Shown piece after piece: positions 1-14,735 of a stretch of 16,032 bases of DNA. The first letter of the stretch is position 1, and each line of letters opens with the position of its first letter. Origin of the DNA: Elusimicrobiota bacterium (GTDB lineage Bacteria; Elusimicrobiota; Elusimicrobia; UBA1565; UBA9628). Both the position numbers and the translations under genes were made by a program. A model generated the notes under the pieces. It had not been told where the DNA came from. It was given only the letters and a program-made list of their open reading frames with translations, and did no database searches. The DNA lies in the NCBI GenBank assembly GCA_027319565.1, contig DAHVNA010000023.1, positions 1-16,032 on the forward strand, read 5' to 3'.

Positions 1-342
1 TCCCAAACCCCGGTGATTCCCTCAAACCCTGTCGTGCAAAACGCCCAACAGGTTCAAAAGAGCAAGGTGGACTTGAAAAAAGTTCAGAAGAGCGAAATTA
101 AAACCTTGGCGGATATCCAGAAAGCGGAAGATCATGATCTTAATTCCGTGCGAAAAGATACCAGCCTCAGCTCTTCGGCGCGTCAGAAAGCGATTGCCCA
201 GATTCGCGCGAAATACGATCAGATGAGAAAAGACGCGCGCTTGGCCGCCAACAAAGCCGGAAAAATGGATTACAAAAACGAGCAGAAAGCTAAAGCCAAG
301 GAATTAAAAGCCGAGAAATCCCAGACCCCTGTCGGTCAGTAA
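1..342 (+). CDS. Hypothetical Lys/Gln/Ala-rich helical protein, probably 5'-truncated by the window edge
   Basis: Frame is open from base 1 (TCC CAA ACC CCG GTG...) to TAA 340-342 and is followed by hairpins. No family recognised. Confidence 0.65.
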   Translation, partial: SQTPVIPSNPVVQNAQQVQKSKVDLKKVQKSEIKTLADIQKAEDHDLNSVRKDTSLSSSARQKAIAQIRAKYDQMRKDARLAANKAGKMDYKNEQKAKAKELKAEKSQTPVGQ

Positions 343-374
343 AAATTAGCGGGAAACTTTCCCGTTTGTCTTTC

Positions 375-409
375 AGAGCCCCCTGTGCGCGTAGGGGGCT
401 CTCCTTTTT
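375..409 (+). terminator. Rho-independent terminator
   Basis: Perfect 10-bp stem AGAGCCCCCT (375-384) / AGGGGGCTCT (393-402), then CCTTTTT, about 30 nt after the stop codon at 342. Confidence 0.8.
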
Positions 410-421
410 GGGTTTCTGTTA

Positions 422-427
422 TACAAT
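422..427 (+). promoter_or_regulatory. Putative -10 element for a leaderless rhodanese-mutM transcript
   Basis: TACAAT at 422-427 lies 6 nt before ATG 434, with no clear SD. No good -35 element. Confidence 0.5.
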
Positions 428-433
428 ATAGGT

Positions 434-754
434 ATGAATATCCCTTGTATGACCGCCGCGCAGTTAAAAGCTCGCATTGAGCGCGGCGAGAAACTATTGA
501 TTTTAGACGTTCGTCAGGAGTCGGAGAGAAAAAGATCGCATATTCAAGGTTCGCGGTTTATTCCGCTGGACCGCTTGCCCGAGCGTTGCCATGAGTTGGA
601 TAAATCTTCCGAAATCGTGGTTTATTGTCATCTGGGCGGGCGCTCGGCCCGGGCCGCGGCGTTTCTCATTCAGAACGGATATAAGGCCGTCAATCTCGAG
701 GGAGGCATTACGGCCTGGGTTGATTGCGGACATCACGCTCCTCCGGGAGAATGA
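434..754 (+). CDS. Single-domain rhodanese-like sulfurtransferase
   Basis: ILDVR-x-x-x-E, HIQGS-x-x-IP, active-site loop VVYCHLGGRS and C-terminal NLEGGITAW are the typical rhodanese motifs. Confidence 0.92.
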   Translation: MNIPCMTAAQLKARIERGEKLLILDVRQESERKRSHIQGSRFIPLDRLPERCHELDKSSEIVVYCHLGGRSARAAAFLIQNGYKAVNLEGGITAWVDCGHHAPPGE

Positions 755-760
755 ACTAGA

Positions 761-1540
761 TTGCCGGAATTGCCGGAGGTTGAAACTGTTCGGCGTGTCC
801 TGGAAGAAACAATTTCGGGACAGACTTTTCTCTCCTACCGCCTTGGAGTGCCCACTTTTTACCGCTGTCCGGATGAGGCGCTTCTCGGAAATCTCAAAGG
901 CCTTAAAATACTCGGCGTCTCTCGACGCGGGAAATACCTGATATTAAAATTTCAAAATAACCGTGAACTGATTTTGCATTTGGGAATGTCGGGGAGAATT
1001 CATTTTAACGAGCGCTCTTTACAGGCGAGAATCAGCCTTCATTTTTCCAAGACGACCGTCTATTTTCAAGACACGCGCAGGTTCGGCCGCGTGATGGGCC
1101 GTCTGCCTCTTTTGGGGCCGGAACCCCTCTCTCAAGATTTTAGCGCCGACTATCTGTCTTCTGTTTTGAAAAATAAAAAAGCCGCGATTAAATCCGCCTT
1201 GATGGACCAGTCAATCGTGGCCGGTCTTGGCAATATTTACGCGACCGAGGCTCTTTATCTGGCCGGAATTCGCCCTGGGCGCCAAGCCTGCCGCGCGCGT
1301 TGCGATGAAATTAAAAGAGTCGTGTCTTTAGTGCAAGAGTTATTGCAAAAGTCTATTTCAAGCGGGGGAACGACCTTGCCGGATGAGTCTTATCTCGATC
1401 CATTAGGGCGTCCGGGCCGTTTTCAAAATCAATTGAAAATTTATGGAAAGACCCTCTGCCCCGAGGGGCACGCTATTTCAAGGACTAAACGCCTGATTGC
1501 CGGCCGCCGCGCTTATTACTGCAGTTTTTGCCAGAGATAG
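761..1540 (+). CDS. mutM: Formamidopyrimidine-DNA glycosylase/AP lyase (Fpg/Nei family)
   Basis: N-terminal PELPEVE (TTG start), RRGKYL, HLGMSG, DTRRFG, LGPEPL, H2TH motif LMDQSIVAGLGNIYATEAL, GGTT and a C-terminal zinc finger. Confidence 0.95.
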   Translation: MPELPEVETVRRVLEETISGQTFLSYRLGVPTFYRCPDEALLGNLKGLKILGVSRRGKYLILKFQNNRELILHLGMSGRIHFNERSLQARISLHFSKTTVYFQDTRRFGRVMGRLPLLGPEPLSQDFSADYLSSVLKNKKAAIKSALMDQSIVAGLGNIYATEALYLAGIRPGRQACRARCDEIKRVVSLVQELLQKSISSGGTTLPDESYLDPLGRPGRFQNQLKIYGKTLCPEGHAISRTKRLIAGRRAYYCSFCQR

Positions 1541-1552
1541 AGACGGTCGATC

Positions 1553-2011
1553 TTATTGAATTTGCCGGACCGAGACGTTTTCTCCGTTTGAGCTCGCTAA
1601 ATGAGGGTTTTTAGGATCGGTCATTTTTTTCCCATCCACCACGAAAAGATACTGACATCTTCCCTTGGGAAGAGGCAAAAACACGCTCCACTCCCCGGAT
1701 TCTTTCTTCATCATCTTAATCGTCTTGGACGCCCAATGATTGAAATTTCCTATCAAGTAAACTTCCTTGGCTTCGGGAGCTCGAATCTTGAATTCGACAA
1801 AGGACAGCCGCGGTTTGAAAGAAACATTTTTGTGAAGGTCCTCCGGAATCATATTGTCCCCGGTTTGTTTTAAGACCCCGGGGTCGATTCCGGAAAAGAA
1901 ATCGCGGTATTCGCGAATTTTTTCAAGGAAAAATGTGGAGGGAACCAGGAGAAGCAGTCCGATCAAGAACATTAAAAACACGACAATCTTATTTCGCTTA
2001 CTTTCTTCCAT
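1553..2011 (-). CDS. Membrane-anchored glycogen-binding (CBM48/AMPK-beta-like, early-set) domain protein
   Basis: N-terminal TM (IVVFLMFLIGLLLLVP), then VEF-x-x-x-APEAKEVYLIGNFNHW...GEWSVFLPLPKGRCQYLFVVDG...DP-x-N, which matches the CBM48 pattern. Confidence 0.85.
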   Translation of the reverse strand: MEESKRNKIVVFLMFLIGLLLLVPSTFFLEKIREYRDFFSGIDPGVLKQTGDNMIPEDLHKNVSFKPRLSFVEFKIRAPEAKEVYLIGNFNHWASKTIKMMKKESGEWSVFLPLPKGRCQYLFVVDGKKMTDPKNPHLASSNGENVSVRQIQ

Positions 2012-2017
2012 ACTGTG

Positions 2018-2026
2018 ATATTACCA
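2018..2026 (-). promoter_or_regulatory. Extended -10 promoter for the CBM48 gene (leaderless)
   Basis: Minus strand reads TGG-TAATAT-CACAGT-ATG, i.e. TGn plus -10 element 6 nt before the start codon. Confidence 0.6.
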
Positions 2027-2070
2027 TTATTTCCATTTGGTAAAAATATGGTAAAAAAACTGGGTTTGCC

Positions 2071-2099
2071 TTGACAAAAAAGAGAAGAGGGGCTACACT
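2071..2099 (+). promoter_or_regulatory. Sigma70 promoter (leaderless mRNA)
   Basis: TTGACA (2071-2076)-N17-TACACT (2094-2099), 6 nt before ATG 2106. Confidence 0.85.
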
Positions 2100-2105
2100 C
2101 AAAGT

Positions 2106-3098
2106 ATGGCCTTCGTTATTAAACAACAAGCCGATCCCTTCAAAAAATATTGGTGGTTGATTCTTTTAGTCTTCGGCTTAGTGGGGCTTTGGGTTTGTTA
2201 CCCCGCCTTTAACTCTTCTTCCAACGCCTCCTTAGCCGGGGCCGAATCGGGCCTTCATCCCGTTAATCAAAGTCTTGATTCCACCCAAAATCCCAATGGG
2301 GCGCCCGGAGGGCCGGTGGATCTGTCCATGAAATCCTTTGAGGCCTATGGAAAAAAGGCGCTAGTTGACCCCTTTGCTTCTCTTCTTTTCTCTCCGCCGC
2401 CTTCGGCTCCCGTGGCGAGCGCGTCTTCATCCAAGAAATCGGGAAAGAAATCTTCCCAGTGGGCAGATGCCTTGGCCAGTTTGGCTTCTCAAGGCCAGTC
2501 CCCAGCCGCCGCAACGGCCGCTCCGGTTTTATCCGCCGCATTTCCTAAGGGAAATTTTTCGAGTCTTTCCGGCCTTAGCGGAAGCGAGAGTTCAAACGCA
2601 TTTGCCCCCGCGGGAGCGGGAAATTCTCCCGGCGGGCTCAGCGGTTTTGGGGCGCATACGCCAAAGATTGGAATTAGTTACGCCCATGGAACTTCAGATT
2701 CGGGTCCGTCTCAAGCCAACGGCGGGGGCGCGATGGGAGCTTTAAAAAATACTGCGGCCCAGATGAAATCGGCGGCTTTGGCTCTCAATGGAACGCAGTC
2801 GAGCGCGCTGGCGGCTCAGGCTTTTGACGGTGGAGCGATAGGCCGCGGGCTTATTAATGATCCTAAGGGAATGTCTTCGGCTGTTGGGATCGGGCAAGGG
2901 ACTCCCATGAATCTCAAAGCCAATGATCCCAATTTAAATCAGTCAAAGCCGAATGCGGTTCCGGCGATGCCCCCGATGATGAATCAGCAGCCGAGCATGA
3001 TGCAGCAGATCATGCAGATGCTGATGATGGCGGTTGTCGGTGGGCTTGCCGGCGGAGTTGTCAAGGGAGTTTTGGGGGCCATTGGGTTAGCCGCTTGA
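2106..3098 (+). CDS. Hypothetical Ala/Gly/Ser-rich membrane protein with N-terminal TM and C-terminal glycine-zipper helix
   Basis: KKYWWLILLVFGLVGLWVCYP TM, long low-complexity region, M/Q-rich tract, C-terminal AVVGGLAGGVVKGVLGAIGLAA. A strong promoter lies directly upstream. Confidence 0.8.
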   Translation: MAFVIKQQADPFKKYWWLILLVFGLVGLWVCYPAFNSSSNASLAGAESGLHPVNQSLDSTQNPNGAPGGPVDLSMKSFEAYGKKALVDPFASLLFSPPPSAPVASASSSKKSGKKSSQWADALASLASQGQSPAAATAAPVLSAAFPKGNFSSLSGLSGSESSNAFAPAGAGNSPGGLSGFGAHTPKIGISYAHGTSDSGPSQANGGGAMGALKNTAAQMKSAALALNGTQSSALAAQAFDGGAIGRGLINDPKGMSSAVGIGQGTPMNLKANDPNLNQSKPNAVPAMPPMMNQQPSMMQQIMQMLMMAVVGGLAGGVVKGVLGAIGLAA

Positions 3099-3114
3099 TT
3101 TGAGAGGTATTTTT

Positions 3115-4581
3115 ATGGAAACAAAACAAAACGGTCCTAAAATTAACAAAGGTGAAAAAACGGGACTGGCTGGAATTCTCAGCGCCTTGGGCTGGAACGC
3201 AGCGGAGGGAGAAGCTGTCTCCGGCGGTTTGGGGGGAATGATTGACGCGGCAACCTCTGGCGGGCTTTTGGCGACCAAGGCCGGAATCGTGGGACTTGTT
3301 TTGGCGGGAACGACTGTGGCCGGAGGCGTGGGTTGGCTGGGATACAAAGTTTTGGGCCCCGGGCCTGGAGACAAGGCGCATGCCCATTTTCAGGTTTTTC
3401 AACCAAGGCCGGCGCAATCCGCTTCGGGACAATCTCAAGGTGGCGGCAATTCTCCAAACTCCGGTCAGTCTTCCTTGGGAGATCTTAGTCAGGCCAATCA
3501 AGGGGCGATGGGAGAAGCGGCCGCTTCATTAAACTCTGCTCCGGCTGCTTCCGCGGCCATTGGGGCCGCCCCCAAATCTCCCAATGTCGGTAAGGTTTTT
3601 GGCGGTAAAGCTTCTAAGGTGATGCCGAAATTAGCCGGAGCCGCTAAAATCGGTCAACTTTCTAATCTCAACGCCGCGGGTCCCGCCGCGGCCGCGAAAC
3701 CCGCCGCGGCAAAACCCATGGCGGTGGGGGCGCTGCCCGGTGGCGCTGGAGCGGGAGCTCCGCATGGCGCGGTGGCGGGACGGGGATTTGGCGGATCATC
3801 GGGTGGCGGCGGCGGTGGTTTTCGAGCGATGAACGGCGCTGGAACGGGTTATGGCGGACTTGGTCCCAACAATGTTCCTGGAAATGCTCTTTTCGATGGG
3901 ACTCATGCCTCTGGTATCGGTACCCCTAGCGGTTCTGGGTTGGGAGGAGTAGGAAGCGGAGCTCCCACCCAGTTTCCAGCCGCGTCCAGTTACGGCGGTC
4001 AATTTTCTCCTCAAGGCGGGAACCAAATGCCCTACACTGGCAACGGCACGGACGTGACCCCTTGGCAGGGCGCGATCAATCTGGCGATCATGCTGTCTCT
4101 TTTGGCTGGTGCGCTTATGTATGCGGCTTTCGCATTGTCGAAGTCACAAACTCTGAGCGTTGGTACTCTCAAGGCGATTTTGGCAGTTCTTGGAGTTGTT
4201 ATTGCCGCAGTTGGAGGATTTATCGCCTATCTTGGCAGCCAAATTGCGGGAGGGCAATTCGGCCAATCATTCCAGGGCGGAGCCTTTACCTTGGCGGGAA
4301 CATTTATCGCCATGTCTGGTATGGCTATTGCGGCAGGGGGGGCTGCAGGGGATTTTACTAAGGCAGGTTTTGGTGGTACGACGTCTATGGTTTTCATGGC
4401 TTGTGGGGCCGTGGGATTATTGAGCGCCATGGCGGGCTATCTTGTTCCCGGTCAGCAGTATCCTTCGACGATGTTCTACGGGAACCCTCCTGACTGGACC
4501 AACCCTAATGCCCAGGTCAACCCCAATCCCTATCAATACAATCCCTACTATGGTGGCTCTAGTATGGGAGGTATCCCGTAA
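3115..4581 (+). CDS. Hypothetical Gly/Ala-rich membrane protein with about 4 C-terminal hydrophobic helices
   Basis: ATG 3115 preceded by GAGG (3104-3107) is preferred over TTG 3100. Gly-rich hydrophobic N-terminal segment, low-complexity linker, hydrophobic bundle after VTPWQ, and an N/P/Y-rich tail. Confidence 0.8.
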   Translation: METKQNGPKINKGEKTGLAGILSALGWNAAEGEAVSGGLGGMIDAATSGGLLATKAGIVGLVLAGTTVAGGVGWLGYKVLGPGPGDKAHAHFQVFQPRPAQSASGQSQGGGNSPNSGQSSLGDLSQANQGAMGEAAASLNSAPAASAAIGAAPKSPNVGKVFGGKASKVMPKLAGAAKIGQLSNLNAAGPAAAAKPAAAKPMAVGALPGGAGAGAPHGAVAGRGFGGSSGGGGGGFRAMNGAGTGYGGLGPNNVPGNALFDGTHASGIGTPSGSGLGGVGSGAPTQFPAASSYGGQFSPQGGNQMPYTGNGTDVTPWQGAINLAIMLSLLAGALMYAAFALSKSQTLSVGTLKAILAVLGVVIAAVGGFIAYLGSQIAGGQFGQSFQGGAFTLAGTFIAMSGMAIAAGGAAGDFTKAGFGGTTSMVFMACGAVGLLSAMAGYLVPGQQYPSTMFYGNPPDWTNPNAQVNPNPYQYNPYYGGSSMGGIP

Positions 4582-4607
4582 TCATAGCGCTCATAACTCC
4601 TAGGGTC

Positions 4608-4635
4608 TTGACAAAGTCAGTATTTCTGTTACACT
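4608..4635 (+). promoter_or_regulatory. Sigma70 promoter driving a ~200-nt structured leader
   Basis: TTGACA (4608-4613)-N16-TACACT (4630-4635), with extended -10 TG at 4627-4628. Confidence 0.8.
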
Positions 4636-4710
4636 TCTAAGGACGTATCCCGTATAGTTTATTCGCGGTCGAGGGGGCAAAAAAAACCGCGAGAATTTTC
4701 TCTATGCGGG

Positions 4711-4835
4711 CGATAAAGGCAAACCCGTGCCGAAAGGCACGCGGCTTCCTAGTCTTCGTATAAGACAGGGATTCCGCGCCGTAAGGCGGGGGCGCAAAGC
4801 CGTGACTCCTTTCGAGGAGCGTCAGGCTGCCGAAA
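4711..4835 (+). ncRNA. Cyclic di-GMP-I (GEMM-I)-like riboswitch aptamer with expanded P2
   Basis: Hallmark segments in the right order: CG-ATAAA-GGCAAACC (4711-4725), GGGGCGCAAAGCC (4789-4801), GGCTGCCGAA (4825-4834). Equivalents of Vc2 G20, A47 and C92 are G4718, A4796 and C4830. It lies between a promoter and ATG 4839. Confidence 0.8.
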
Positions 4836-4838
4836 TGA

Positions 4839-6452
4839 ATGGCCCAAGCTAAGGCGAGAGGCCTGTCGTTTTATAGACAGGCGCGTATTGCCGCAGGGAG
4901 AATTCTCTCTGCGGGGTTTCTTGTTTTCTTTTCCGTGCCCGCCTTTTCCCAACTCCTCTCTCAAAGCGCGATTGGAGGTCTCCCTGGGAATTTTCTTCTC
5001 TACGGCGTTGGCGCGAAGGCCTTGGCCATGGGCGGAGCTTTCTACGGCTTGTCTAATGACGCGACCGCGGGCAACTGGAACCCGGCGGGACTCGCGCAGC
5101 TTCAGAGAAAGCAATTGACCTTTATGGACGGAGCCTTGCCCCAGCAGACAAGCCTTGATTATCTCGCCTATGCACAGCCGCTTAAAGGCGGCAGCACTTT
5201 TGCCGGGTCTTTTACGAAACTTTCCGCCGGCGGATTTCAAAATGAGACCGCCACCTACAATCCACAGGGAACTCTGACCGGACTGACCTCCGAGGGCTCT
5301 TTTACCAATGCGCAACAAGCCATTAGCTTTTCCTGGGCGAAAAGCCTGACCAAGACGACCTCTTTTGGCGCGACGGTTCAGGAAGTTTCAAACAGCTTGG
5401 CCGGATACTCGAGCAACACCCAAGCCCTTAACATCGGAATGCTCAAGACCTTCGGGTTCTATCATCTGGGATTAGGCGTTCAAAACGCTTTTTCAAGAAC
5501 CGCCGGCGCGACCAGCGATCAATATCCGGTCATCGTCAGAATGGGAAACGCCATCGAACTTTTCCATGATCGCCTGATTTTGGATATGGATTTAAATAAG
5601 CCCTTGACCCCGGGGCTTGACGTCAATTTCGGCGGAGAGTATCATCTTTCTCAATGGTTCGCGTTTCGCTTTGGTCTCATGGGAATTCCTCAAATTCAGG
5701 AAACCGATTTCGGATTCGGACTGGATTTCCAAACTTTCCAGGTGGATGTTGCCGAGGGAATTGGAAACCTTGGGACCAGCACAAAAATCTCTCTAGGGTT
5801 TAAGTTTGGCGAGAGTAAAACCGCCAACACTAATGCCAAGGTCAAAGCGGTTTTAAAATCCGCCTTTGAGGCTCTTCAGGAGGGAAATTTCACCTTGGCC
5901 CAGGCCCGCTTTAAAGAAGCTCTTTATATCCAGCCGGGAAATAACAAAATTCAGCAAATGATTGATCGTCTTAAAACTGTCACCGATCATGTGCCCCAAG
6001 CGACCGGAGGGGAGGAGTTTCAGACCTTTGTGCGCAAAGGCGCGGTCCTGTTTGTTGACGGCAATGACTTGCGGGGATCCGTCAACGCCTTGAGATACGC
6101 TTACAACAAAAATCCAAAAGACGAGAAATTGCTGCTTCTTTTAAACGCGGTTGAGAAGGCGGCCCATGTCACCGAGCTGACTCGCCGGGTTGGAGGGCCG
6201 GAGCAGTTTACCTGGGTGGATCAAAAAGTGTATGACGCCCGGCAGTCGGTCTATGAGGGACACTATGACGCCGCGATAAGGCGGGCGCAAGACGTTTTGG
6301 ATTTGGAACCCAATAACGTGACCGCCCTTGAGATTCTTGGCAGCGCGTTTTATCTGATGGACCAAAAACAAAAAGCGATCGCGGTCTGGAAAAGAGTTTT
6401 AGAGCTTGATCCGCATAATAAAGAAGTTCGCCAGTTCATGCAGGCAAAATAA
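4839..6452 (+). CDS. PorV/PorQ (UPF0164, FadL-like) family outer-membrane beta-barrel with C-terminal TPR domains
   Basis: Signal-peptide-like FLVFFSVPAFS|Q; family motif GVGAKALAMGGAFYGLSNDATAGNWNPAGLA; amphipathic strands ending ISLGFKFG (~5810); TPRs (AFEALQEGNF...ALYIQPGN; LDLEPNN...AIAVWKRVLELDPHN). Confidence 0.8.
   Translation: MAQAKARGLSFYRQARIAAGRILSAGFLVFFSVPAFSQLLSQSAIGGLPGNFLLYGVGAKALAMGGAFYGLSNDATAGNWNPAGLAQLQRKQLTFMDGALPQQTSLDYLAYAQPLKGGSTFAGSFTKLSAGGFQNETATYNPQGTLTGLTSEGSFTNAQQAISFSWAKSLTKTTSFGATVQEVSNSLAGYSSNTQALNIGMLKTFGFYHLGLGVQNAFSRTAGATSDQYPVIVRMGNAIELFHDRLILDMDLNKPLTPGLDVNFGGEYHLSQWFAFRFGLMGIPQIQETDFGFGLDFQTFQVDVAEGIGNLGTSTKISLGFKFGESKTANTNAKVKAVLKSAFEALQEGNFTLAQARFKEALYIQPGNNKIQQMIDRLKTVTDHVPQATGGEEFQTFVRKGAVLFVDGNDLRGSVNALRYAYNKNPKDEKLLLLLNAVEKAAHVTELTRRVGGPEQFTWVDQKVYDARQSVYEGHYDAAIRRAQDVLDLEPNNVTALEILGSAFYLMDQKQKAIAVWKRVLELDPHNKEVRQFMQAK
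4891..4932 (+). terminator. Terminator-like hairpin inside the first codons of the barrel gene (candidate riboswitch expression platform)
   Basis: CCGCAGGGAG-AATT-CTCTCTGCGG (10 bp, one G-U pair), then GG and TTTCTTGTTTTCTTTT. The U-richness could simply reflect Phe/Leu/Val codons of the signal peptide. Confidence 0.4.
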
Positions 6453-6473
6453 GATATGGAACATTTTAAAGAC

Positions 6474-6502
6474 TTGAAAATGTCATCAGGAGTGCCTACA
6501 CT
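6474..6502 (+). promoter_or_regulatory. Internal sigma70 promoter upstream of the motor genes
   Basis: TTGAAA (6474-6479)-N17-TACACT (6497-6502), the same -10 hexamer as at 2094 and 4630. Confidence 0.7.
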
Positions 6503-6542
6503 TATGTCGAAGGCTCAAGGAACCTATTTTAACGCTTCTCAA

Positions 6543-8507
6543 ATGAAAAAAATCGCCTTTCTCCTGATTTTTATTGTCGCGGCGGTCAAAGCGCTTCAAG
6601 CCGCTCCGCTAGTCGCGCCCGATATTGACCTTCTGAAAGAGCAGAATCAAATTAAGTTGGAGTCGGAAAAAAAGATTCAAGATGAAATTCTCGATCCCAT
6701 CCTGGGGCCGGGAGAAGCCGTCGCTTTTGTCGATGTAGAAATGTCGGTCAAGGTCGAAAGCGAAAGACTCAAGAGAAAGGGGGTGGGCGAGGCGCAGAAA
6801 TACCACCAGAAAAATAACAATGACAACAGCGCCAACATGAACACGAATTTCGTCATGCCCGGAATTCCTAAGCCGACGGCCATTACCGCGGGCGGCCCCA
6901 AAACTCCGCCCAATTCCGCTTCCGCCCAAGCCGCTCAGGAGTCTAAGGGAATTCAACAAGAGACCTATGCCGTAAACCCTATTTTTAAGAAGCTGACGGT
7001 GACCGTCATTCATGACCAAAATGTGCTCAAAGATAAAAATCAGATAGAGATGGTTCGCAGCCGCATTGTCGACGCGATGGGGCAATATCATCTGGCGCCG
7101 GAAAATATTTTCTTTCGGGCCACGCCTTTTGCCCATATCAAGAATGATTGGAAGGAAGATCTTAAAAAACCTTCCGTCTATTTGCCGCTTCTCTACGCTT
7201 TTCTTTTGCTCCTTCTCTTGTCCTTTTTATTCGGGCCGTTGCGGAAGTTTTTAAAAGCTTATATTCAGGCCTTGATGGAAAAGCCGCAATCAGAGGTTGA
7301 GGTGACAGGAGAAGAGGGTGGAGGAGACGATGAAAACGACGGAGAAGATGACAATGCCTTAAGTCAGGAAGGGAAATTGGACATTAATTTTACGAGAAAG
7401 CCCGATGAACCCCCGCCCCCGCCGGTGGATGAGGAGGATGAAATGAAAAAATTCGAGCCGTTCGCTTATATTAACGACGAAAACGTTAAACGCTTGGCCT
7501 ATATGTTTATTCTAAGGAAAGAAGAACCCTGGGTCGTTGCGGTCGTGGCCAGCTATCTCAAGCCCGATTTAGCCCGGCAGCTCTTGACTTCTCTTCCGGT
7601 TGATTTGCAGGCCAAGGTCGCTCTTGAGGCCTTGACTGTCCGGCAAGTGACTCGGGACCAGGTGATCGCGATAGACGGGGATGTGAAGGAAAACGTGGAT
7701 TTTGTGGTCGGCGGAATTGAGCGCTTGGTCGTGTTGCTCGATGAATCTGATTCCGCGACTCGCGCCAATATTTTAAATTACCTCAAAAATGAGAAGCCGC
7801 TGGTTTACGAGGCGGTCAGAAAGCATATTCTTATTTTTGAGGATATCGCTTCTTTCCCGGATCGCGATATGCAGACGATTGTTCGCGAATTAAAGACCGA
7901 TTTGATGGCGCGGGCGCTCACCGGAGCCCCGCCCGAGGTTCTCAATAAGTTTCTCAGCAGCATGTCGGCGGGAGCGGCGAGCTTGCTTAAGGAAACAATG
8001 GAATATACCCAGGGGCTCAACCCAAATCAAATCGAGGATGAGAGAACAAAGGTTATGGATTTAATTAAAGCTCTTGAGAAAGACGGGAAAATCTCCGTTC
8101 GCAAGCAAGGACAACAAGGGTATGACATGGTGGAAGGAATGCAGGAAGAATTAAGCGCCATGGAAAGACGCCAGAAAAGATTTCAAAGTGCCAGACAGAA
8201 AAATCAACCGGAGACTCCCTCTATTTCCGCCGATCCGGCCAAGGCGCAGGCCTACTTTGACGCCGCGGTTTCGCAGTATCAGGCGGGGCAGGCGGACGCC
8301 GCAGTTTCGTATTTTGAAGCGGCTTTAACTCTCAATCCTTCTCTTTGGCAGGCCCATCAATATTTAGGGACGCTGCTCTATCAAAAGGGAGACGTTCAAG
8401 GGGCTCTAGCCCATTATGAAAAGGTTTTGGAAATAAATCCGGACCCCCAACTAAAAGTTTGGGTGGACGGCTTTAAATCACAGGTAGGAGGAAACCTCAA
8501 TGGCTGA
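6543..8507 (+). CDS. FliF C-terminal ring domain (RBM3)-TM-FliG middle/C-terminal-TPR fusion protein
   Basis: Start placed at ATG 6543 (signal peptide MKKIAFLLIFIVAAVKALQA, downstream of the internal promoter). FliF_C-like: ESEKKIQDEILDPILGPGEAVAFVDVEM...FKKLTVTVIHD...RIVDAMG. TM: LPLLYAFLLLLLLSFLFGPL. FliG-M: EEPWVVAVVASYL...LP. FliG-C: GGIERL...IFEDI...DRDMQTIVRE...ALTGA...KFLSSMS...ALEKDGKI. C-terminal TPRs. Confidence 0.85.
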   Translation: MKKIAFLLIFIVAAVKALQAAPLVAPDIDLLKEQNQIKLESEKKIQDEILDPILGPGEAVAFVDVEMSVKVESERLKRKGVGEAQKYHQKNNNDNSANMNTNFVMPGIPKPTAITAGGPKTPPNSASAQAAQESKGIQQETYAVNPIFKKLTVTVIHDQNVLKDKNQIEMVRSRIVDAMGQYHLAPENIFFRATPFAHIKNDWKEDLKKPSVYLPLLYAFLLLLLLSFLFGPLRKFLKAYIQALMEKPQSEVEVTGEEGGGDDENDGEDDNALSQEGKLDINFTRKPDEPPPPPVDEEDEMKKFEPFAYINDENVKRLAYMFILRKEEPWVVAVVASYLKPDLARQLLTSLPVDLQAKVALEALTVRQVTRDQVIAIDGDVKENVDFVVGGIERLVVLLDESDSATRANILNYLKNEKPLVYEAVRKHILIFEDIASFPDRDMQTIVRELKTDLMARALTGAPPEVLNKFLSSMSAGAASLLKETMEYTQGLNPNQIEDERTKVMDLIKALEKDGKISVRKQGQQGYDMVEGMQEELSAMERRQKRFQSARQKNQPETPSISADPAKAQAYFDAAVSQYQAGQADAAVSYFEAALTLNPSLWQAHQYLGTLLYQKGDVQGALAHYEKVLEINPDPQLKVWVDGFKSQVGGNLNG

Positions 8508-11184
8508 AGAAAATAAAGATCCTAGGAATTTCCCGCCGCCTTTGCCGGGCTCCCCCATGGATCCCGGCGCGGCGCAGAGAGACGCTTCTTTTCCGGGCCT
8601 TCCGCCTTTTTTGCCGCCGGATGCATTGCAGCCGTCTAAATCCCTTCCGCCCCTGCCCGGTCTTCCCCCAGCTAAAAATGCGTCTTTGCCTGGGCTTCCG
8701 CCCCTTCCATCTTTGCCGATGGCAAGACCAAACCCAAGCTCTCAGGCCGCTCCTCAAGAACAGGTGAATATCGAGAAAAAAATATCGGAATTAGAGAAAA
8801 AGCTTCAAGAGGAACGAGAAAAGGTCTTGATGGCGCAGCTTAAAAATCAGCAGGAAGCCGTGACTTCCGCCAAGGTCGAATCCTCGCTTAAGGAACTCCA
8901 GGAGAAAATTAGGCGAGAAAGGCGAGATCAGGAAACCGAAGAATCCCGCCTGCGCCTTGAAAATAAACTCCGAGAAATGGAGGCGCGTTTGGCGCAAGAG
9001 AGGGAGACCTGGGTTTCGACCCTTAAATCTCAAATGCAGTCCCGCGAATCTCAGGATAAAGATATCGAGACTCAGTTTGTGGGCCGCATCCAGGAGATGG
9101 AAAAGCGCTGGATGGAAGAGAAAATGCAATGGCAGAAAGCTTTGTCCGCTAAAGAAGAGGAAGCGCGCAATTGGCGGATGGTGGCTGAAAAATTAAGGGC
9201 TTCTGAAATCGAGCTAGGCAAAGTCTTAATTGAGAAAAAATCCACTGAAGAGAAAATCAAGGAAATTGAAAAGAAAAATCTGGAATTGGAAAATAAATAC
9301 GACTTTTCCAACGGCAATCTAGTCGAGAGGGAAAAAGAATTAGCCCAAATTAAAGCCGAGCTTACTCTTGAGCGGGAAACCGCTAAGAGGGAAATCGAGA
9401 ATTTGGGGAAATCGCTTAAGGCCCAAGAGGAAAGAGAAAAGCATCTTCTCGGCGAGATGGAAATTCTCAAAAAAGAATTCCTGCTAAAAACTGAAGCCAT
9501 TGTCCGCGAGAAAGACGACAAAATAAAAGAAATCACTCGCGATAAAGATATCGGCCTTGAACGCCTTCAGGCTTCTTATGAAAAACAGATAGGAGCGATC
9601 AAAAATTCTCTTAAAGAGGCGGAAGAAAAATACGCGGCCAGTCTTGAGAAAATGCGTTTGGAAAAGAAAGCGGAAATTCAATCTCTTAAAGACGGCTTTC
9701 AAAAAGAGTTGGAAGCCGCTTTGAAATCGGAAAAGGAAAAAGAAAAGCGGTTGCAGGATGAAATTTCCCGCCTCAAAGAAGAGATGAGTGAAGTGGAATC
9801 GCGGGCCTCTGAGAAAAAAGAAAAAGCTCTTGGTGATCTTAGAGTGCAATTTCAGGAAAAAATTCTCGATTTGGGCGCTCAATCTAAAAAACGAGAAAAT
9901 GAGCTTGATTTTGAAATTCAGAGGCTAAAAAGCGAGTTGGAGCGTGCCAACGAGCCCTTTCTTCAAGCTAAAGCAGAACATGAAACTGAAATTCAAAAAC
10001 TTAAAGCCGCGTTCCGCATGGAATTAGATGCCGTTCGGTCCGAGAATTCCCTAAGAGAAGCCAAATTGCTGTCTGAAAATTCAGTCTTGAAGACAAATCT
10101 ATCCGCAATTGAGTCCATCAAGGCGCGTATGGAAGAGGAATTATTGCGGTTGCAAAATGAGCGCGATCGGACGATCGAACAATCCGAGGCAAAGTTGCGG
10201 GATGAAATTGCGCGTCTTCAGGCGGGTTTTAGGCTCCAAATAGAAGCCTTTAGAGAATCCAACCAATCTAAAGAAGAGAAGCTTAAGGCCGATATTTCAG
10301 CCCTAAGAAAAGAGAAAGAAGAGATAATTGAGGAATATCAGTCTCAGCACGAGTTAGAATTGAGGAATAGACGTTTGGAAATAGAGACGGAGATTAGACG
10401 CTATCAGGAGAAAGCCGAGCGCGAGAAGAAAGAGGAAGTTGAAAGATCGGTTGCTTCTAGGGTGTTTGCCATCGCTAAAGAGATTGAGGAGAAAACTCGG
10501 AAAGAAAAAGAAAGGGAATTCGGGAGCTTAAGACTCGCGGCGGCGCTGGAACAAAAAAAACATCAAGAGAAAGAAAAGCAATATCAGCAAGACCTCTCTG
10601 AGTATCAGAATCGGCTGCTTGAACTAGAGAAAAAAATAAAAGAGCTTACAGATAGAGAGGATGCCTACAAAAAACAGATGACGGATGTGAAAATTCAAAT
10701 GGCTTCAGCGCAGGCGGAAAAAATAAGCGCGGCTAAAAGAGAAGAACGTCTTCACGCAGCTTTGGCGGTCGTGCGCGGCAAGTGGGAAAAAGAACTAGAG
10801 GCGCAGGTCCTCAAGAAAACGGAAGAAATCCTTGGAATTGAGAAGACTCGTCTTCAAGCGCGGTTCCAACAGGAGGTCGAGCAGAAAGTGGAAGAGATCC
10901 TCCAAAACCGTCGGCTTAAAATGGAACAGGAAATGAGGCTAGAAAAAGACAAAATAGTGGAAGAACAGCGGAGAAAGATAGAAAACGAAATTGCTAGACT
11001 CAAGGAAGAATCTCGGAAGGAACGGGCAGATTTGGAAGAGGCTGTGGCGGCTTATTTGGAAATGAAAAGCAGGAAGGAAGAGGCCGAAAGGCTTTGCTCG
11101 GCTCAGGGGGCACAGCTTGCTTTTGTTAGAAAAGAGGTGGAAAATCTTCAGCAGCAGGTGCGCCAGAGGCTCGCCAAAAAATAG
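8500..11184 (+). CDS. Large Glu/Lys-rich coiled-coil protein with proline-rich N-terminus
   Basis: SD AGGAGG at 8486-8491; 8-nt overlap with the upstream gene; about 800 aa of heptad-like sequence. No Walker motif, TM or signal peptide seen. Confidence 0.88.
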   Translation: MAEENKDPRNFPPPLPGSPMDPGAAQRDASFPGLPPFLPPDALQPSKSLPPLPGLPPAKNASLPGLPPLPSLPMARPNPSSQAAPQEQVNIEKKISELEKKLQEEREKVLMAQLKNQQEAVTSAKVESSLKELQEKIRRERRDQETEESRLRLENKLREMEARLAQERETWVSTLKSQMQSRESQDKDIETQFVGRIQEMEKRWMEEKMQWQKALSAKEEEARNWRMVAEKLRASEIELGKVLIEKKSTEEKIKEIEKKNLELENKYDFSNGNLVEREKELAQIKAELTLERETAKREIENLGKSLKAQEEREKHLLGEMEILKKEFLLKTEAIVREKDDKIKEITRDKDIGLERLQASYEKQIGAIKNSLKEAEEKYAASLEKMRLEKKAEIQSLKDGFQKELEAALKSEKEKEKRLQDEISRLKEEMSEVESRASEKKEKALGDLRVQFQEKILDLGAQSKKRENELDFEIQRLKSELERANEPFLQAKAEHETEIQKLKAAFRMELDAVRSENSLREAKLLSENSVLKTNLSAIESIKARMEEELLRLQNERDRTIEQSEAKLRDEIARLQAGFRLQIEAFRESNQSKEEKLKADISALRKEKEEIIEEYQSQHELELRNRRLEIETEIRRYQEKAEREKKEEVERSVASRVFAIAKEIEEKTRKEKEREFGSLRLAAALEQKKHQEKEKQYQQDLSEYQNRLLELEKKIKELTDREDAYKKQMTDVKIQMASAQAEKISAAKREERLHAALAVVRGKWEKELEAQVLKKTEEILGIEKTRLQARFQQEVEQKVEEILQNRRLKMEQEMRLEKDKIVEEQRRKIENEIARLKEESRKERADLEEAVAAYLEMKSRKEEAERLCSAQGAQLAFVRKEVENLQQQVRQRLAKK
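8530..8718 (+). repeat. Imperfect proline-rich peptide repeats (LPGLPP)
   Basis: FPPPLPGSP, ASFPGLPPFLPP, SLPPLPGLPP, ASLPGLPPLPSLP. Confidence 0.75.
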
Positions 11185-11196
11185 AGGGTTAAATTA

Positions 11197-11427
11197 GTGA
11201 TCTCAGTCCACAAACTTAATGGTCAAGAGGTTTTTATCAATGCGGAATTGATTGAATGTCTTGAGAAAGGACAAGAGACAATCGTTTGTCTTGCCACTGG
11301 CAATCGCTTTTTGGTTAAGGAAAATGTGGAGGAAGTCGTTCAAAAAGTGATTGACTATCGTAAGAAGGTCAATTCGGATTCCAAAGTCGCCAACCCGATC
11401 GCGGGTTTTGAGAGAAAGAATCCTTAA
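11197..11427 (+). CDS. flbD: FlbD/SwrD family protein
   Basis: MI-x-V-x-KLNG-x-x-x-x-INAELIE...ETIV-x-L-x-TG-x-x-FLVKE-x-x-EEV-x-x-KVIDYRKK fits the FlbD consensus; it lies directly upstream of motA as is usual. Confidence 0.92.
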   Translation: MISVHKLNGQEVFINAELIECLEKGQETIVCLATGNRFLVKENVEEVVQKVIDYRKKVNSDSKVANPIAGFERKNP

Positions 11428-11439
11428 GGAGATAAATCG

Positions 11440-12222
11440 ATGGATATAGCGACGGTGCTGGGAATACTGGTTTTCTTGGGGTTGGCCGTCATAACGATTT
11501 TCTTGTCGGAAGGCTGGGTTGGATTTAAGCCTTTCTTTAACATGGAAGCTTTTTTGATGGTCATGGGGGGAACTTTTTGCGCGACCTTGGTCAATTACCC
11601 GCTTTCCCAGGTGGTCGGTCTTGGGCGCATTGTCCGCAAGGTCTTGTTTTCCGCGCCCGAGGATACTCCCGATATCGTGGCGACCTTTGTCAGCCTTTCC
11701 CAGAAGGCTAAAAAAGAAGGATTTTTAGCCCTTCAAGCCGATGTGAAATCCATTCAAAATGATTTCCTGCGCCGGGCGATTCAATTGGTTATTGACGGCG
11801 CGGATCAGGAGTTTATCCGCAATATGTTAGAAACGGAAATCGGCTTTATTCGGGAAAGGCATAAAGTGGGACAGGAAATTTTCAACGCGATGGGGACCTA
11901 TGCGCCGGCTTTTGGAATTATCGGCACGGTTTTGGGAATGATTTTGATGTTGTCGACAATCGAAGATGTCACCCAAGTGCCCCGGCGTATGGCGGTCGCC
12001 TTGGCTTCGGCTTATTTCGGCCTGGGCTCGGGCTATCTTATTTTTCTTCCGATGGGCGGAAAATTGCGCCGGAGATCTGAAGAAGAGCTTCTGGTCAAGG
12101 AAATCATTATCCGCGGAGTTCTCCTCCTTCAAAGCGGCGCGACCCCGAGCGTGGTTGAGGCCAATTTAAAGGCTTATCTTGAGCCGGCCAAACGCGGGGC
12201 CATCAAAACCCAGACTGCTTAA
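11440..12222 (+). CDS. motA: Stator A subunit (MotA/PomA family)
   Basis: MD-x-AT-x-LG, V-x-GGT, AKKEGFLAL, FL-x-x-x-x-QLVIDG, APAFGIIGTVLG, MAVAL, FLPMGGKL; SD AAGGAG at 11426-11431. Confidence 0.95.
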   Translation: MDIATVLGILVFLGLAVITIFLSEGWVGFKPFFNMEAFLMVMGGTFCATLVNYPLSQVVGLGRIVRKVLFSAPEDTPDIVATFVSLSQKAKKEGFLALQADVKSIQNDFLRRAIQLVIDGADQEFIRNMLETEIGFIRERHKVGQEIFNAMGTYAPAFGIIGTVLGMILMLSTIEDVTQVPRRMAVALASAYFGLGSGYLIFLPMGGKLRRRSEEELLVKEIIIRGVLLLQSGATPSVVEANLKAYLEPAKRGAIKTQTA

Positions 12223-12228
12223 ATTTTT

Positions 12229-12966
12229 ATGCCTCTCAAACCGCCAAAAGGTTTTATCGACGAATCCGATCCCAAGGTGGCCCAGATCGGCCATCCGGCC
12301 CCGCCATGGCTGGTCAATTATGCGGACCTCATGACCGAGATTGCCTGTTTTTTTATCATTCTCTATGCCCTTTCGACTTCTTTAAATAAACAGGTTCAAC
12401 AGGCGGTCGAGGATGTTCAAAAGATGGTGAATACCAAACAGATTAGCGGCACGGTTGCAGTCGACCGTGAGGGATTAAAAATTACGCTCAACGAAGAAGG
12501 CCATGTTTCTTTCTTTAAAAGCGGAGAGGCGGACACCACCCCTGCCATGGATGCGATGATCGCCAAACTCGTGCCGACCCTTCGGAAATTGGCCGTAGAT
12601 CACGATATTATCGTTGAAGGCCATACCGACAACCGTAAAATCTCCAACCAATATTTCGACTCGAACTGGGAACTCTCGACGGCGCGGGCGACGATGGTCG
12701 TCAGGCTTCTTAAAAATAAATACGGGCTTCCGCCGAATCGTTTGGGCGCTTTAGGATACGGCCAATATCGCCCGATTGCCTCGAACAATACCCCCGAGGG
12801 CCGCGCGGAAAACCGTCGTGTCGTTTTTTGGGTTAAGAATCTTTCTCCCTCGGACAAGAAAATTGTTTCGGGTTCCGGAGGGGCAAAAGCCAAGGCTTTG
12901 ACTGCCCATCCCCCAGCGTCCGTGCCTGAGAAAAAAGAGAATCAGCCGAATATAAAAGGGCTATAA
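12229..12966 (+). CDS. motB: Stator B subunit (MotB family) with OmpA-like peptidoglycan-binding domain
   Basis: TM WLVNYADLMT...FFIILYA with the conserved Asp; EGHTDN, SNWELSTARA, GYGQYRP, NRRV. Confidence 0.95.
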   Translation: MPLKPPKGFIDESDPKVAQIGHPAPPWLVNYADLMTEIACFFIILYALSTSLNKQVQQAVEDVQKMVNTKQISGTVAVDREGLKITLNEEGHVSFFKSGEADTTPAMDAMIAKLVPTLRKLAVDHDIIVEGHTDNRKISNQYFDSNWELSTARATMVVRLLKNKYGLPPNRLGALGYGQYRPIASNNTPEGRAENRRVVFWVKNLSPSDKKIVSGSGGAKAKALTAHPPASVPEKKENQPNIKGL

Positions 12967-14561
12967 TGAGTTTAATGTTGGATTTAAAAAAGACATTGTG
13001 TCTGTTGGGCTTGGGATTTACTTTTGCGTGCGCCACTCTTCCCAAGGGCGTTCCAACGCCTTTGCCTTTAAAGCCTCTTCCCGTCGCGTTTCAAGCGCCT
13101 CCTTTGTTTAGCCGCGCGGATCTTAACGCTTTTTCTTGGAAGGCCCCCGTGGGACGCCCACCTTTTCCACACCTCAGGTTAACGCTGCTTCCCACTCAAA
13201 ATTCTCAAAACTCCGAAATTTTTGTTGCCCAGATTCTTAAGTGGCTTTCCAATCACGAGGGGCCTTTAAGCGGCGAGATGTCTCCGGGAACGGTTTTCTC
13301 TCAGGTTCAAGAACTTTTTAAGGACAATTTCGAGGCGGCCTCTCAAGATTTAGAGGGCGCGGATATCCAAACCGATGTGGACTGGTCTCTCGCTCTCCCG
13401 GTTTTAGAAGGTCGCTATGAGCAAAATAAAATTGAGATGAATCTTGCGGTTGCCTTCATGACGCCGGAGGGCAAACAAATTGAAGCCATTAAAGTTCACT
13501 CCTCTGAATCAATGGGCGCGAAAGATTGTTCCCGATATGTGAGTCTTGCCCATGAAGAAGGTTTTCCCGCTTCTCAAACCCAGTGTTTTGAAAGAGGGTT
13601 TCTTGTGGCTTTAAGCGATTTGTTGGGGCGTTTAGAGTCTTCTCTGATTCATTCAAAAGCCTTAGGGCTTTACCAATCACAGCTGGTCTCCCATCAGGCG
13701 GCAGAAGAGCCCATCCCGCCCAATGTCTTTAATTCTCAAAAGACGGCAGAGGCTTTGAAGCCTTCCGCGGCATCTTCCCATTCTCTTCACTCGGATGTGG
13801 ATTCTCCGACCTATGCTTTGAGCGCCGCGCGAGACAATTACGCGGTGGTGGTGGGCATCCAGAAATATGAGAATGTCGCGAACGCTGAGTTCGCCGTCAA
13901 TGACGCGCGGGCGATGAGGCGCCATTTATTGGCCTTGGGCTTTCCCGAGCAAAATATCGCTTTTTTAACCGACAGCCAAGCGACCAAAAGCGGGATTGAT
14001 AAGTATGTGGCCAGTTGGCTGCCCAATCATTCTTCCAAGCAGTCTAAAATATTTTTTTACTTTTCCGGACATGGGGCTAACGATCCAGTATCTCACCAGG
14101 CGTATTTGGTGCCTTGGGACGGGGACCCCGCATTTTTGAGCGCCACCGGATATTCCATCGCCCATTTATACCGGCAAATCAATAAAATTAAGGCGGGGCG
14201 CTTAATCGTCGTTTTAGATTCCTGCTTTTCAGGGCAAGGACCGCGCTCGGTGATGGCCAAGGGGCTTCGCCCCTTAGTAGAAAAAGTGGATATGGGACCG
14301 GCGAGTTTGGGAAAAATCGCCGGGTTAGCCGCCGCGGGCCCCGAGCAAGTGGAGGGCGTCATCCCGGAGGAAGGGCACGGAATTTTGACCTACTACCTTT
14401 TAAAGGGGCTTAACCGCTCTCAAGGCCTTGGCAAACTGAACGAAATTTATCATTATATGGAACCGCGAGTAGAAGATGTCGCGCGCAGCGAGGGGAGAGT
14501 TCAGACCCCTCAACTCATGGGGAAAAACACCCTGATTACGTTAGGAGGCATTTTAAAATGA
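12966..14561 (+). CDS. Lipoprotein with C-terminal caspase-like (peptidase C14) domain
   Basis: Lipobox-like TFA|C; YAVVVGIQKY; catalytic His in FYFSGHG and Cys in LDSCFSG; HGILTYYLLKGL; QTPQ. TAATG overlap with motB. Confidence 0.88.
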   Translation: MSLMLDLKKTLCLLGLGFTFACATLPKGVPTPLPLKPLPVAFQAPPLFSRADLNAFSWKAPVGRPPFPHLRLTLLPTQNSQNSEIFVAQILKWLSNHEGPLSGEMSPGTVFSQVQELFKDNFEAASQDLEGADIQTDVDWSLALPVLEGRYEQNKIEMNLAVAFMTPEGKQIEAIKVHSSESMGAKDCSRYVSLAHEEGFPASQTQCFERGFLVALSDLLGRLESSLIHSKALGLYQSQLVSHQAAEEPIPPNVFNSQKTAEALKPSAASSHSLHSDVDSPTYALSAARDNYAVVVGIQKYENVANAEFAVNDARAMRRHLLALGFPEQNIAFLTDSQATKSGIDKYVASWLPNHSSKQSKIFFYFSGHGANDPVSHQAYLVPWDGDPAFLSATGYSIAHLYRQINKIKAGRLIVVLDSCFSGQGPRSVMAKGLRPLVEKVDMGPASLGKIAGLAAAGPEQVEGVIPEEGHGILTYYLLKGLNRSQGLGKLNEIYHYMEPRVEDVARSEGRVQTPQLMGKNTLITLGGILK

Positions 14562-14716
14562 AAACTTTAATTCTGGTTTTTGCCGGCGCCGCCGGTGTCG
14601 TGGCTTTCGCTTTCGGTTGCGCTCCTAAAACGGGCAATTATCATATGGTTCATTCAGATTCAAAGAACGCTCAGCAGGATCTCAATCAGGCGATTTTAAA
14701 CCATCCGCTCCAATGA
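14558..14716 (+). CDS. Small 52-aa lipoprotein (not in the ORF track)
   Basis: SD AGGAGG at 14543-14548; ATGA overlap with the upstream stop; MKTLILVFAGAAGVVAFAFG|CAPKTGNYHMVHSDSKNAQQDLNQAILNHPLQ; fills the intergenic gap. Confidence 0.85.
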   Translation: MKTLILVFAGAAGVVAFAFGCAPKTGNYHMVHSDSKNAQQDLNQAILNHPLQ

Positions 14717-14735
14717 AGGGAGTTTCTTTAAAAAT

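Follow-up and report, generated by a model that had tools for sequence, protein, structure and literature searches.

A natural FliF–FliG fusion in Elusimicrobiota, probably the rotor of a flagellum-derived motor without a flagellum

We analyzed a 16,032-nucleotide stretch of an Elusimicrobiota genome (GenBank assembly GCA_027319565.1, contig DAHVNA010000023.1, positions 1–16,032 of the forward strand; hereafter “the window”) and found that its gene at 6543–8507 encodes a genuine natural fusion of the third ring-building motif (RBM3) of FliF with the middle (M) and C-terminal (C) domains of FliG. Judged from its sequence and genomic setting, this 654-amino acid (aa) protein is probably the whole rotor of a flagellum-derived, ion-driven motor that would work without export gate, rod, filament, or switch. 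The gene and all operon features described below lie on the + strand. Phylum-wide counts refer to 201 Elusimicrobiota genomes, placed in the phylum by the names of their relatives. Residue counts refer to 56 genome-derived fusion sequences, i.e., 31 from a clade carrying tetratricopeptide repeats (TPRs) and 25 paralogues, and gene-content counts to 60 loci of ≤20 kb hand-picked from the fusion matches (32 TPR-type and 28 paralogues), several of which come from the same genome and some of which stop short of the operon end.

Pfam matches above cut-off in the fusion comprised FliG_M (residues 323–377, E = 3.6e-9), FliG_C (residues 414–518, E = 6.7e-24), and two TPRs. From the N-terminus, the gene encodes a Sec-type signal peptide predicted by inspection (6543–6602; basic N-terminus and hydrophobic core, similar in orthologues), RBM3 with a collar insert (6624–7121), a single transmembrane (TM) helix corresponding to FliF TM2 (7170–7238; hydropathy and a FliF alignment reaching residue 471), and an acidic, Gly- and Pro-containing disordered linker that replaces FliF-C and FliG-N (7281–7442; pLDDT <50 at residues 248–285), which measures 46–74 aa across the 56 sequences. 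These are followed by a FliG helix-NM remnant with the middle domain and helix MC (7452–7700; PF14841 and alignment to T. maritima FliG), the stator-contacting FliG-C (7782–8099; PF01706), and two cytoplasmic TPRs with a capping helix (8235–8444; Pfam TPR_1/TPR_2 and model). Hydropathy delineated two segments only, the N-terminal signal-type one and the TM helix at about residues 210–232.

The periplasmic domain was assigned from structure and profile comparisons, the single-sequence Pfam match to YscJ_FliF_C at residues 50–180 being under cut-off (E = 0.021). Two AlphaFold2 models, one of the full-length protein (116-row alignment, mean pLDDT 81, pTM 0.43) and one of residues 28–198 alone, both fold residues 28–193 as a split ring-building motif, helix–strand–(insert)–strand–helix–strand. 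Among 48,161 solved chains searched with VIA-align, the top three were all FliF RBM3 (Z 12.0, 11.6, and 10.7; 8z5v at Z 12.0 with a root-mean-square deviation (rmsd) of 1.9 Å over 94 aligned residues, 6scn at Z 11.6), with PrgK (Z 9.6) and SpoIIIAG (Z 9.0) as runners-up. The first 19 Foldseek rows for the RBM3 model were all FliF or MS-ring entries (E = 3e-5), and a profile of the 56 periplasmic sequences matched Salmonella FliF residues 240–471 (E = 4e-10). On the cytoplasmic side, the modeled FliG-C superposed on FliG-C of 1qc7 and 8ucs with an rmsd of 1.2–1.3 Å over 88–89 residues. Because the structural match to Salmonella FliG starts only at residues 97–104, FliG-N is absent; searches for it returned a weak PF14842 match that lands on the M domain and a TIGR00207 score of 91 bits against a cut-off of 227. 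Similarly, only 27 residues precede RBM3, and PF01514 (RBM1/RBM2) was not found in the source genome, with four control genomes positive. A first-pass annotation made from the sequence alone had proposed this architecture, from signal peptide through a single RBM3-like domain, one TM helix, FliG-M, and FliG-C to the TPRs, with RBM1/RBM2 and FliG-N missing, and Pfam, hydropathy, fold, and profile evidence uphold all of it. It had named a periplasmic region without RBM fold as a case against itself, and the opposite was observed; its reading of the acidic/Pro linker and of the EEPW (7521–7532) and ILIF (7827–7838) motifs was correct.

The fusion is not an assembly artefact, another case raised in that annotation: a single match covering at least residues 31–642 was found in 50 of the 201 genomes (including the source genome), with 29–88% identity in the others. 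Public contigs from four DNA runs cover the operon in 30, 30, 30, and 29 of 30 bins, and none spans the whole gene; a joint at 7210–7371 in these contigs was not taken as a misjoin because its short side is 30 letters long and its loose end resembles a relative’s TM-coding sequence. An in-frame ATG at 6456 would add 29 aa in which no Pfam match was found, and since close relatives mostly have 653–654 aa, 6543 is the likelier start.

Across the phylum, FliG_C was found in 72 genomes, at 1–6 matches per positive genome, and FlhA, FliM/N, and flagellin were each above cut-off in the same 5 genomes, the source genome not among them. A FliG_C domain without FlhA, FliM/N, and flagellin was observed in 67 genomes, a count that includes the canonical FliG of genome G123, which lies beside a canonical-looking FliF on a short contig. 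In two genomes (G064 and G121), the fusion coexists with a flagellar gene set. FliG_C was near-absent from two large families, f4 (0/58) and f12 (1/63, a canonical FliG), which we infer, from genome size and 10.1101/2022.07.08.499144, to be animal-associated. In a tree of 60 FliG-M/C segments, the source protein falls within a supported 31-row clade, all with a long TPR-type tail, and three canonical FliGs form their own clade; deep branching was not resolved. Because the TPRs are confined to this one clade (31 of the 56 sequences), we regard them as accessory. All named sequence relatives of the fusion are Elusimicrobiota; among 20 distant representatives, four clusters had a taxon label, three Elusimicrobiota and one Nitrospirae, and a genome-collection scan with the single periplasmic sequence matched only 6 close relatives. 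The source genome carries a second fusion copy on contig C33 (L121:11011–13524), in one frame with an upstream histidine kinase and with a signal-like stretch between the two; the same long kinase-fusion frame is seen in three relatives (L085, L087, and L090).

The first-pass description of the rotor as “self-contained” does not hold, as the gene sits in a conserved operon that also encodes a PorV-like barrel, a coiled-coil protein, SwrD/FlbD, and the stator proteins MotA and MotB. On one strand, the order is cyclic di-GMP-I (c-di-GMP-I) riboswitch, PorV-like barrel with TPR domain, fusion, coiled-coil protein, SwrD/FlbD, MotA, and MotB. The stator genes encode a flagellar-type MotA (11440–12222; best PDB matches flagellar MotA/PomA, E = 2e-48) and a flagellar-type MotB with plug, OmpA-like peptidoglycan-binding domain, and TM residue Asp33 (12229–12966; PF13677 and PF00691). 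A threonine pair in TM4 is typical of sodium stators; its absence from MotA makes protons the likelier driving ion for the TPR clade. Together with the cytoplasmic torque domain of MotA, the MotB plug, OmpA-like domain, and TM Asp make up the features of flagellar-type (FIT) stators (PMC12505986), all of which are present. The stand-alone MotB keeps its channel Asp in 18 of 18 cases. A tandem MotB pair was observed at 19 loci (L061, L065, L067–L075, L077–L079, L082, L083, L088, L091, and L092; L044 was excluded from this count, its two copies belonging to two operons), and in 8 of these pairs one copy has the channel Asp replaced, by Asn in 7 cases and by Gly in 1; this suggests that the stator is asymmetric.

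Upstream, a sigma-70-like promoter candidate (4608–4635; 10/12 consensus matches with TG before the −10 box, a consensus match only) precedes the riboswitch (4708–4834; Rfam RF01051, 42.3 bits versus a cut-off of 35), which lies in the operon leader. A scan of 12 TPR-clade loci detected this riboswitch at 11; it was not found at the C33 paralogue locus of the source genome. The PorV/PorQ-like outer-membrane barrel (4839–6452; NF033709 E = 5e-25, 88.7 bits versus a cut-off of 90) carries a conserved C-terminal TPR domain of ~210 aa (TPR Pfam matches), and this PorV-TPR gene lies directly upstream of the fusion in 44 of the 60 loci. Paralogous operons within one genome have their own matched PorV-TPR: for 8/8 pairs, identity was 26–34% within a genome versus 51–90% for the best match elsewhere. 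A 92% identical copy of the PorV-TPR gene (window 4825–6445) makes up contig C80 (1622 bp) and represents a strain variant or a second copy. Downstream of the fusion, an 894-aa protein (8500–11184) combines a Pro-rich N-terminus and a long coiled coil, with no TM helix, signal peptide, or Pfam or NCBIfam family; a block at about residues 90–230 is conserved in TPR-clade loci, and residues 80–260 had no match ≥0.9 in the ESM Atlas. At loci L046–L056, an extra coiled-coil protein of 1550–2100 aa stands between the fusion and the usual coiled coil, with TPR-like repeats at its end where checked, and most of these loci have a stand-alone, 120–160 aa tail-only gene before the barrel. SwrD/FlbD (76 aa, 11197–11427; PF06289, E = 1.7e-20), which was detected at 14 of the 64 loci searched, each belonging to the TPR clade, is a torque enhancer of flagellar motors in B. 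subtilis (PMC13740483). Overall, the 60 loci contained a PorV-like gene in 53 cases, MotA in 38, MotB in 38, a protein with a type IX secretion system (T9SS)/FlgD-like tail in 34, including giants of 2200–2800 aa, and a detected coiled coil in 28.

We compared the FliG motifs and torque residues of the fusion with those of known motors. The EHPQ motif, in its EHPQR form the FliM site (PMC6290876), had been read as EEPW, which is correct: H and Q are replaced in the source protein, vary in the TPR clade, and the second position is never H in the 56 sequences, while E (31/31) and P (29/31) are kept. The MFxF motif, also noted as altered, does read ILIF; its last F and the D two residues on are, however, invariant in all 31 TPR-clade sequences, and on this alignment the motif is better called conserved than lost. 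The Gly-Gly hinge is kept as well (G391 56/56, G390 55/56), and the EHPQ-to-GG span is 5 residues shorter than in a canonical FliG from the phylum and 7 shorter than in T. maritima. Because FliM/N are missing, switching of the known type is not expected, and a non-switching motor, as first proposed, would be a reasonable reading, although the genome does carry a chemotaxis cluster (see below). For the torque residues, numbering follows PMC6445934 and PMC12505986, mapped via the T. maritima FliG alignment and an assumed motif position; on this basis, the source protein has Gly477 for R281, Glu484 for D288 (Glu in 31/31 TPR-clade sequences), and Thr for D289 (Glu in 20/31). In MotA, the R90-equivalent is Lys91, basic in 35 of 41 operon MotAs, and the E98-equivalent is Gln99, Gln in 26 of 41. 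Both residue pairs are described in those two papers as contacts with the stator.

The earlier claim that no type III secretion gate accompanies the rotor was confirmed at the genome level: export-gate genes and FliM/FliN were not found, and neither were FlhA, flagellin, or rod families in this 92% complete genome, with controls positive. When flagellar open reading frames of relative G064 were used as queries, including the presumed FliE, FlgB, FlgC, FliP, and FlhB assigned by gene position, the matches in the source genome were limited to FliG, MotA/B-type, ATPase, and sigma genes. In this genome without FliM, a chemotaxis cluster is present (contig C37:13938–24041, L123; CheW, CheA, a methyl-accepting chemotaxis protein, CheR, and response regulators), and it also holds an FtsA/PilM-like protein of the actin family (733 aa). 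T9SS are usually described as limited to Bacteroidota. In the source genome, T9SS family scores were under cut-offs (TIGR04189 97 bits versus 200, NF033709 88.7 versus 90, and TIGR04183 20.8 versus 23), and we detected a SprA/Sov-like translocon of 1918 aa (L120:7449–13202, contig C20), around a dozen genes for PorV-like proteins, and several cargo proteins with tails, one of >6000 aa. SprA-like genes occur in at least 46 of the 201 genomes, a lower bound because PF14349 missed the source genome’s own SprA-like gene, which was found via relatives’ sequences. Searches run without a positive control detected neither GldM in any of the 201 genomes nor GldL and GldN in the source genome. An open frame of >6093 aa, cut by the contig start, was observed at L122:1–18279 (contig C24), and its C-terminal tail is that of the operon-heading giants in relatives.

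An invariant hydrophobic-Pro-Gly loop of the collar (6852–6863) aligns to the rod-gripping loop of FliF. It holds the top-conserved periplasmic positions, i.e., Pro106 (56/56), Gly107 (55/56), and the preceding Leu (52/56; Met in the source protein), and the profile places it within Salmonella FliF 309–314 and at the Pro-Gly of Vibrio FliF. Loops from FliF 309–331 bind the rod for torque transmission (PMC11528121), and N318T in the FliF collar loop detaches the rod under load (PMC11739650). Retention of this loop despite loss of the rod suggests a continued grip of the ring on an axial partner, probably a shaft other than the rod; the loop could alternatively plug the ring or mediate self-contacts. 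Within the operon, the barrel’s TPR domain is the sole conserved periplasmic candidate for this partner (mean column identity 41% across 39 loci). A complex prediction for the periplasmic domain (171 aa) with this TPR domain (212 aa), based on 39-row alignments, gave a median of 0.17 against a mark of 0.32 (runs 0.13, 0.38, and 0.17) and is used neither for nor against the pairing. The true flagellar FliFs of the phylum (L103:11913–13487 and L105:8157–9701) have a short collar without the Pro-Gly loop, so that the fusion is probably not derived from them.

On the features tested, the fusion is neither a FliF nor a FliG, nor is it part of a flagellum. With the flagellar motor core (FliF, FliG, MotA5B2, and SwrD; the FliF ring has ~34 subunits), it shares RBM3 with collar, TM2, FliG-M/C with the Gly-Gly hinge, MotA, MotB, and SwrD. 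It differs from this core in consisting of a single polypeptide that has a signal peptide in place of TM1, without RBM1/2, FliF-C, and FliG-N, with the R281-equivalent lost, and in a source genome where no export gate, rod, hook, filament, or FliM/N was found. SpoIIIAG, the ring of the sporulation channel and also a stand-alone split RBM3 (profile E = 3e-5), is not known to have a FliG part or stator, and FliF scores higher for the fusion on both fold Z and profile E. The closest engineered counterparts are the Salmonella fliFG deletion-fusion mutant, which is without FliF-C and FliG 1–94 and still rotates, its C ring being smaller and its bias strongly clockwise (PMC6445934), and Vibrio FliFG fusions (PDB 8z4d): like the protein described here, they join TM2 directly to FliG from about residue 95–100, but they keep TM1, RBM1/2, FliM/N, and a whole flagellum, whereas the Elusimicrobiota fusion is natural, phylum-wide, and without them. 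The FliG part of our model resembles the clockwise state (rmsd 3.9–4.3 Å over 214–217 residues, versus 14–15 Å for the counter-clockwise state), which would fit the bias of the Salmonella mutant but, with a pTM of 0.43 and no FliG folded as control, is only a hint. The FliF–FliG fusion of Chlamydiaceae is also natural and found in a bacterium without flagellum; it keeps two TM helices, RBM2, and only FliG-M, is without RBM3, and goes with FlhA and an injectisome (PMC4768692), unlike the Elusimicrobiota fusion, which has RBM3, FliG-M, and FliG-C and goes with a stator. The Bacteroidota T9SS/gliding machinery has in common with genome and operon the SprA-like translocon, PorV-like barrels, and giants with C-terminal tails; here, however, no score reaches its family cut-off, searches for GldL/M/N (without positive control) found none, the motor in the operon consists of flagellar MotAB and FliG, and the barrel carries a TPR domain.

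We know of no characterized system, and our literature search found none, that uses a FliG ring with MotAB outside the flagellum. The presence of motAB, flbD, and fliG in non-flagellated Elusimicrobiota has been reported and their role called unclear, with no mention of a fusion or operon in the available text (10.1101/2022.07.08.499144). Beyond this report, no earlier description of the fusion was found in a search that left preprint supplements and most subscription journals outside; FliG, MotA, and PorV do not appear in the main text of a preprint on groundwater Elusimicrobia (10.1101/765248), and the phylum is not mentioned in the main texts of PMC12505986, PMC13277936, and PMC13740483. 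The parts are all of known families; any novelty lies in the assembled machine, whose function we infer.

Given these parts, we propose the following mechanism. After Sec export, the RBM3 domains would form an S-ring and its collar; FliF RBM3 on its own likewise forms rings (10.1101/2021.09.23.461508), specifically an S-ring with collar (PMC11739650). The single TM helix and linker would then suspend a FliG-M/C ring below the S-ring, as in the Salmonella deletion-fusion motor, and peptidoglycan-anchored MotA5B2, aided by SwrD, would turn this ring, probably in one direction only because FliM/FliN are missing. These steps taken jointly, i.e., a rotary motor of whatever output, we consider likely. 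Further on, the Pro-Gly collar loop would grip an axial periplasmic partner that replaces the rod; the most plausible candidate is the TPR domain of the PorV-like barrel from the same operon, or else a protein attached to it. The barrel would in turn hold a giant surface protein that carries a T9SS tail and is exported through the SprA-like translocon, so that rotation, controlled by c-di-GMP, would move an adhesin and serve motility on surfaces or attachment to them. For the chain as a whole, a proton-driven, probably one-way rotor moving a PorV-anchored surface protein, we would put the chances at slightly below even. The wider proposal that free-living Elusimicrobiota possess a separate envelope rotary machine of this kind, in which MotAB drives a one-gene rotor and a PorV-ended shaft loaded with a giant adhesin takes the place of the T3SS-built rod and filament, is tentative and less likely still.

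Several observations weigh against this mechanism. Foremost, on the alignment, is the lost charge at the R281-equivalent, the main point against a conventional torque mechanism: it is never basic in the TPR clade (G 22, N 8, and S 1 of 31) and Lys in only 2 of 25 paralogues, so that half of the electrostatic rotor–stator interface would be lost. A charge compensation between FliG R281-to-Gly and MotA E98-to-Gln was considered and dropped, as two flagellar MotAs of the phylum also have Gln at the E98-equivalent while their FliG keeps Arg. The fusion also carries the residue equivalent to Vibrio FliG H145E, which abolishes flagellar motility in a motor where FliM is needed (PMC6290876). MotA/MotB were not seen in the fetched window at 22 of 60 loci (some windows end earlier). 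On the output side, the collar insert is of low confidence in both models and its alignment to FliF is based on a short motif; neither a bushing nor a shaft gene was identified, and the rotating link must cross the peptidoglycan. In the window, the operon does not include the giant tailed gene; a similar one lies on another contig. The genome contains many pairs of PorV and tailed proteins, whose members need not be coupled mechanically. Finally, the divergence of the fusion tracks that of its neighbors (Mantel rho 0.73 with MotA, n = 34; 0.86 with PorV-TPR, n = 41), which is expected from shared inheritance alone and is no sign of binding.

Alternative outputs were weighed against the same data. 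The rotary ring might power secretion, replacing the PorLM motor and PorKN ring to pull tailed giants off the SprA-like translocon or load them on the dedicated PorV. This is unlikely, even though SprA-like, PorV-like, and tailed cargo genes are all present, tailed genes recur at over half of the loci, Gld components went undetected, and in Bacteroidota a 5:2 motor working on a ring powers the T9SS (PMC13104615): family f12 retains SprA-like (15/63) and PorV-like (32/63) genes without the rotor, its one FliG_C being canonical, which weakens this reading, and the Gld searches had no positive control, nor is the SprA-like gene in the operon. A ring that does not spin freely and serves as a fixed scaffold or load sensor, recruiting stators and reporting adhesin surface contact to histidine kinases or c-di-GMP signaling, is favored by the lost R281 charge, the riboswitch heading the operon, the MotB copies without Asp in 8/19 tandem pairs, and the histidine kinase genes of many paralogous operons, in frame with the fusion in the second copy. 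The window operon, however, has no kinase gene and keeps a complete, predicted proton-conducting stator, SwrD, the acidic torque residue, and the rod-gripping loop, and we judge a sensor to be improbable.

We are just as doubtful of a cytoplasmic output, in which the TPR or FliG face would drive one or more coiled-coil proteins, e.g., an internal track or shape-forming filament, with the periplasmic ring anchored to the outer membrane via PorV-TPR. TPR-clade operons do nearly always encode one or two TM-free coiled-coil proteins, which range from several hundred to 2100 aa and are conserved in an N-terminal block, and TPR and long coiled coil tend to co-occur; yet many paralogous operons without TPR and detected coiled coil keep PorV-TPR, the Pro-Gly loop, and MotAB, so that the core function would need neither. 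As for a mis-assembled gene, or one left to decay after loss of a flagellum, the altered switch and torque motifs and the lack of a single public contig spanning the gene might be read that way, but the breadth of conservation refutes it: the fusion is full length in a quarter of the genomes at the wide range of identities given above, genomes positive for FliG_C hold 1–6 matches each, and the fusion forms a clade apart from the true flagellar FliG of the phylum, and coexists with the flagellar set in G064 and G121, leaving this reading with next to no probability.

If the operon rotates, it would constitute a natural minimal motor of one rotor gene plus stator, in which the need of torque for FliM/FliN, RBM1/2, or the R281 charge becomes directly testable. 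The flagellar motor would then be separable from its export apparatus and couplable to another output, which bears on flagellar evolution, and the orphan motAB, flbD, and fliG genes and unknown motility of free-living and magnetotactic Elusimicrobiota (10.1101/2022.07.08.499144) would be explained. Should a one-gene rotor indeed move a PorV-held adhesin, this would represent a hybrid of flagellar motor and type IX secretion and a new mode of surface motility.

Further genes of the window lie on either side of the operon. Upstream, two Gly/Ala/Ser-rich membrane proteins without Pfam family (2106–3098 and 3100–4581) have their own promoter-like site and were seen, among the 60 loci, only in two same-genus loci. 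Downstream, a caspase-domain protein (12966–14561), with five paralogues in the genome, abuts motB and is followed by a FlgT_N-like/DUF4384 protein (14736–15734); both genes occur beside the operon only in a same-genus locus.

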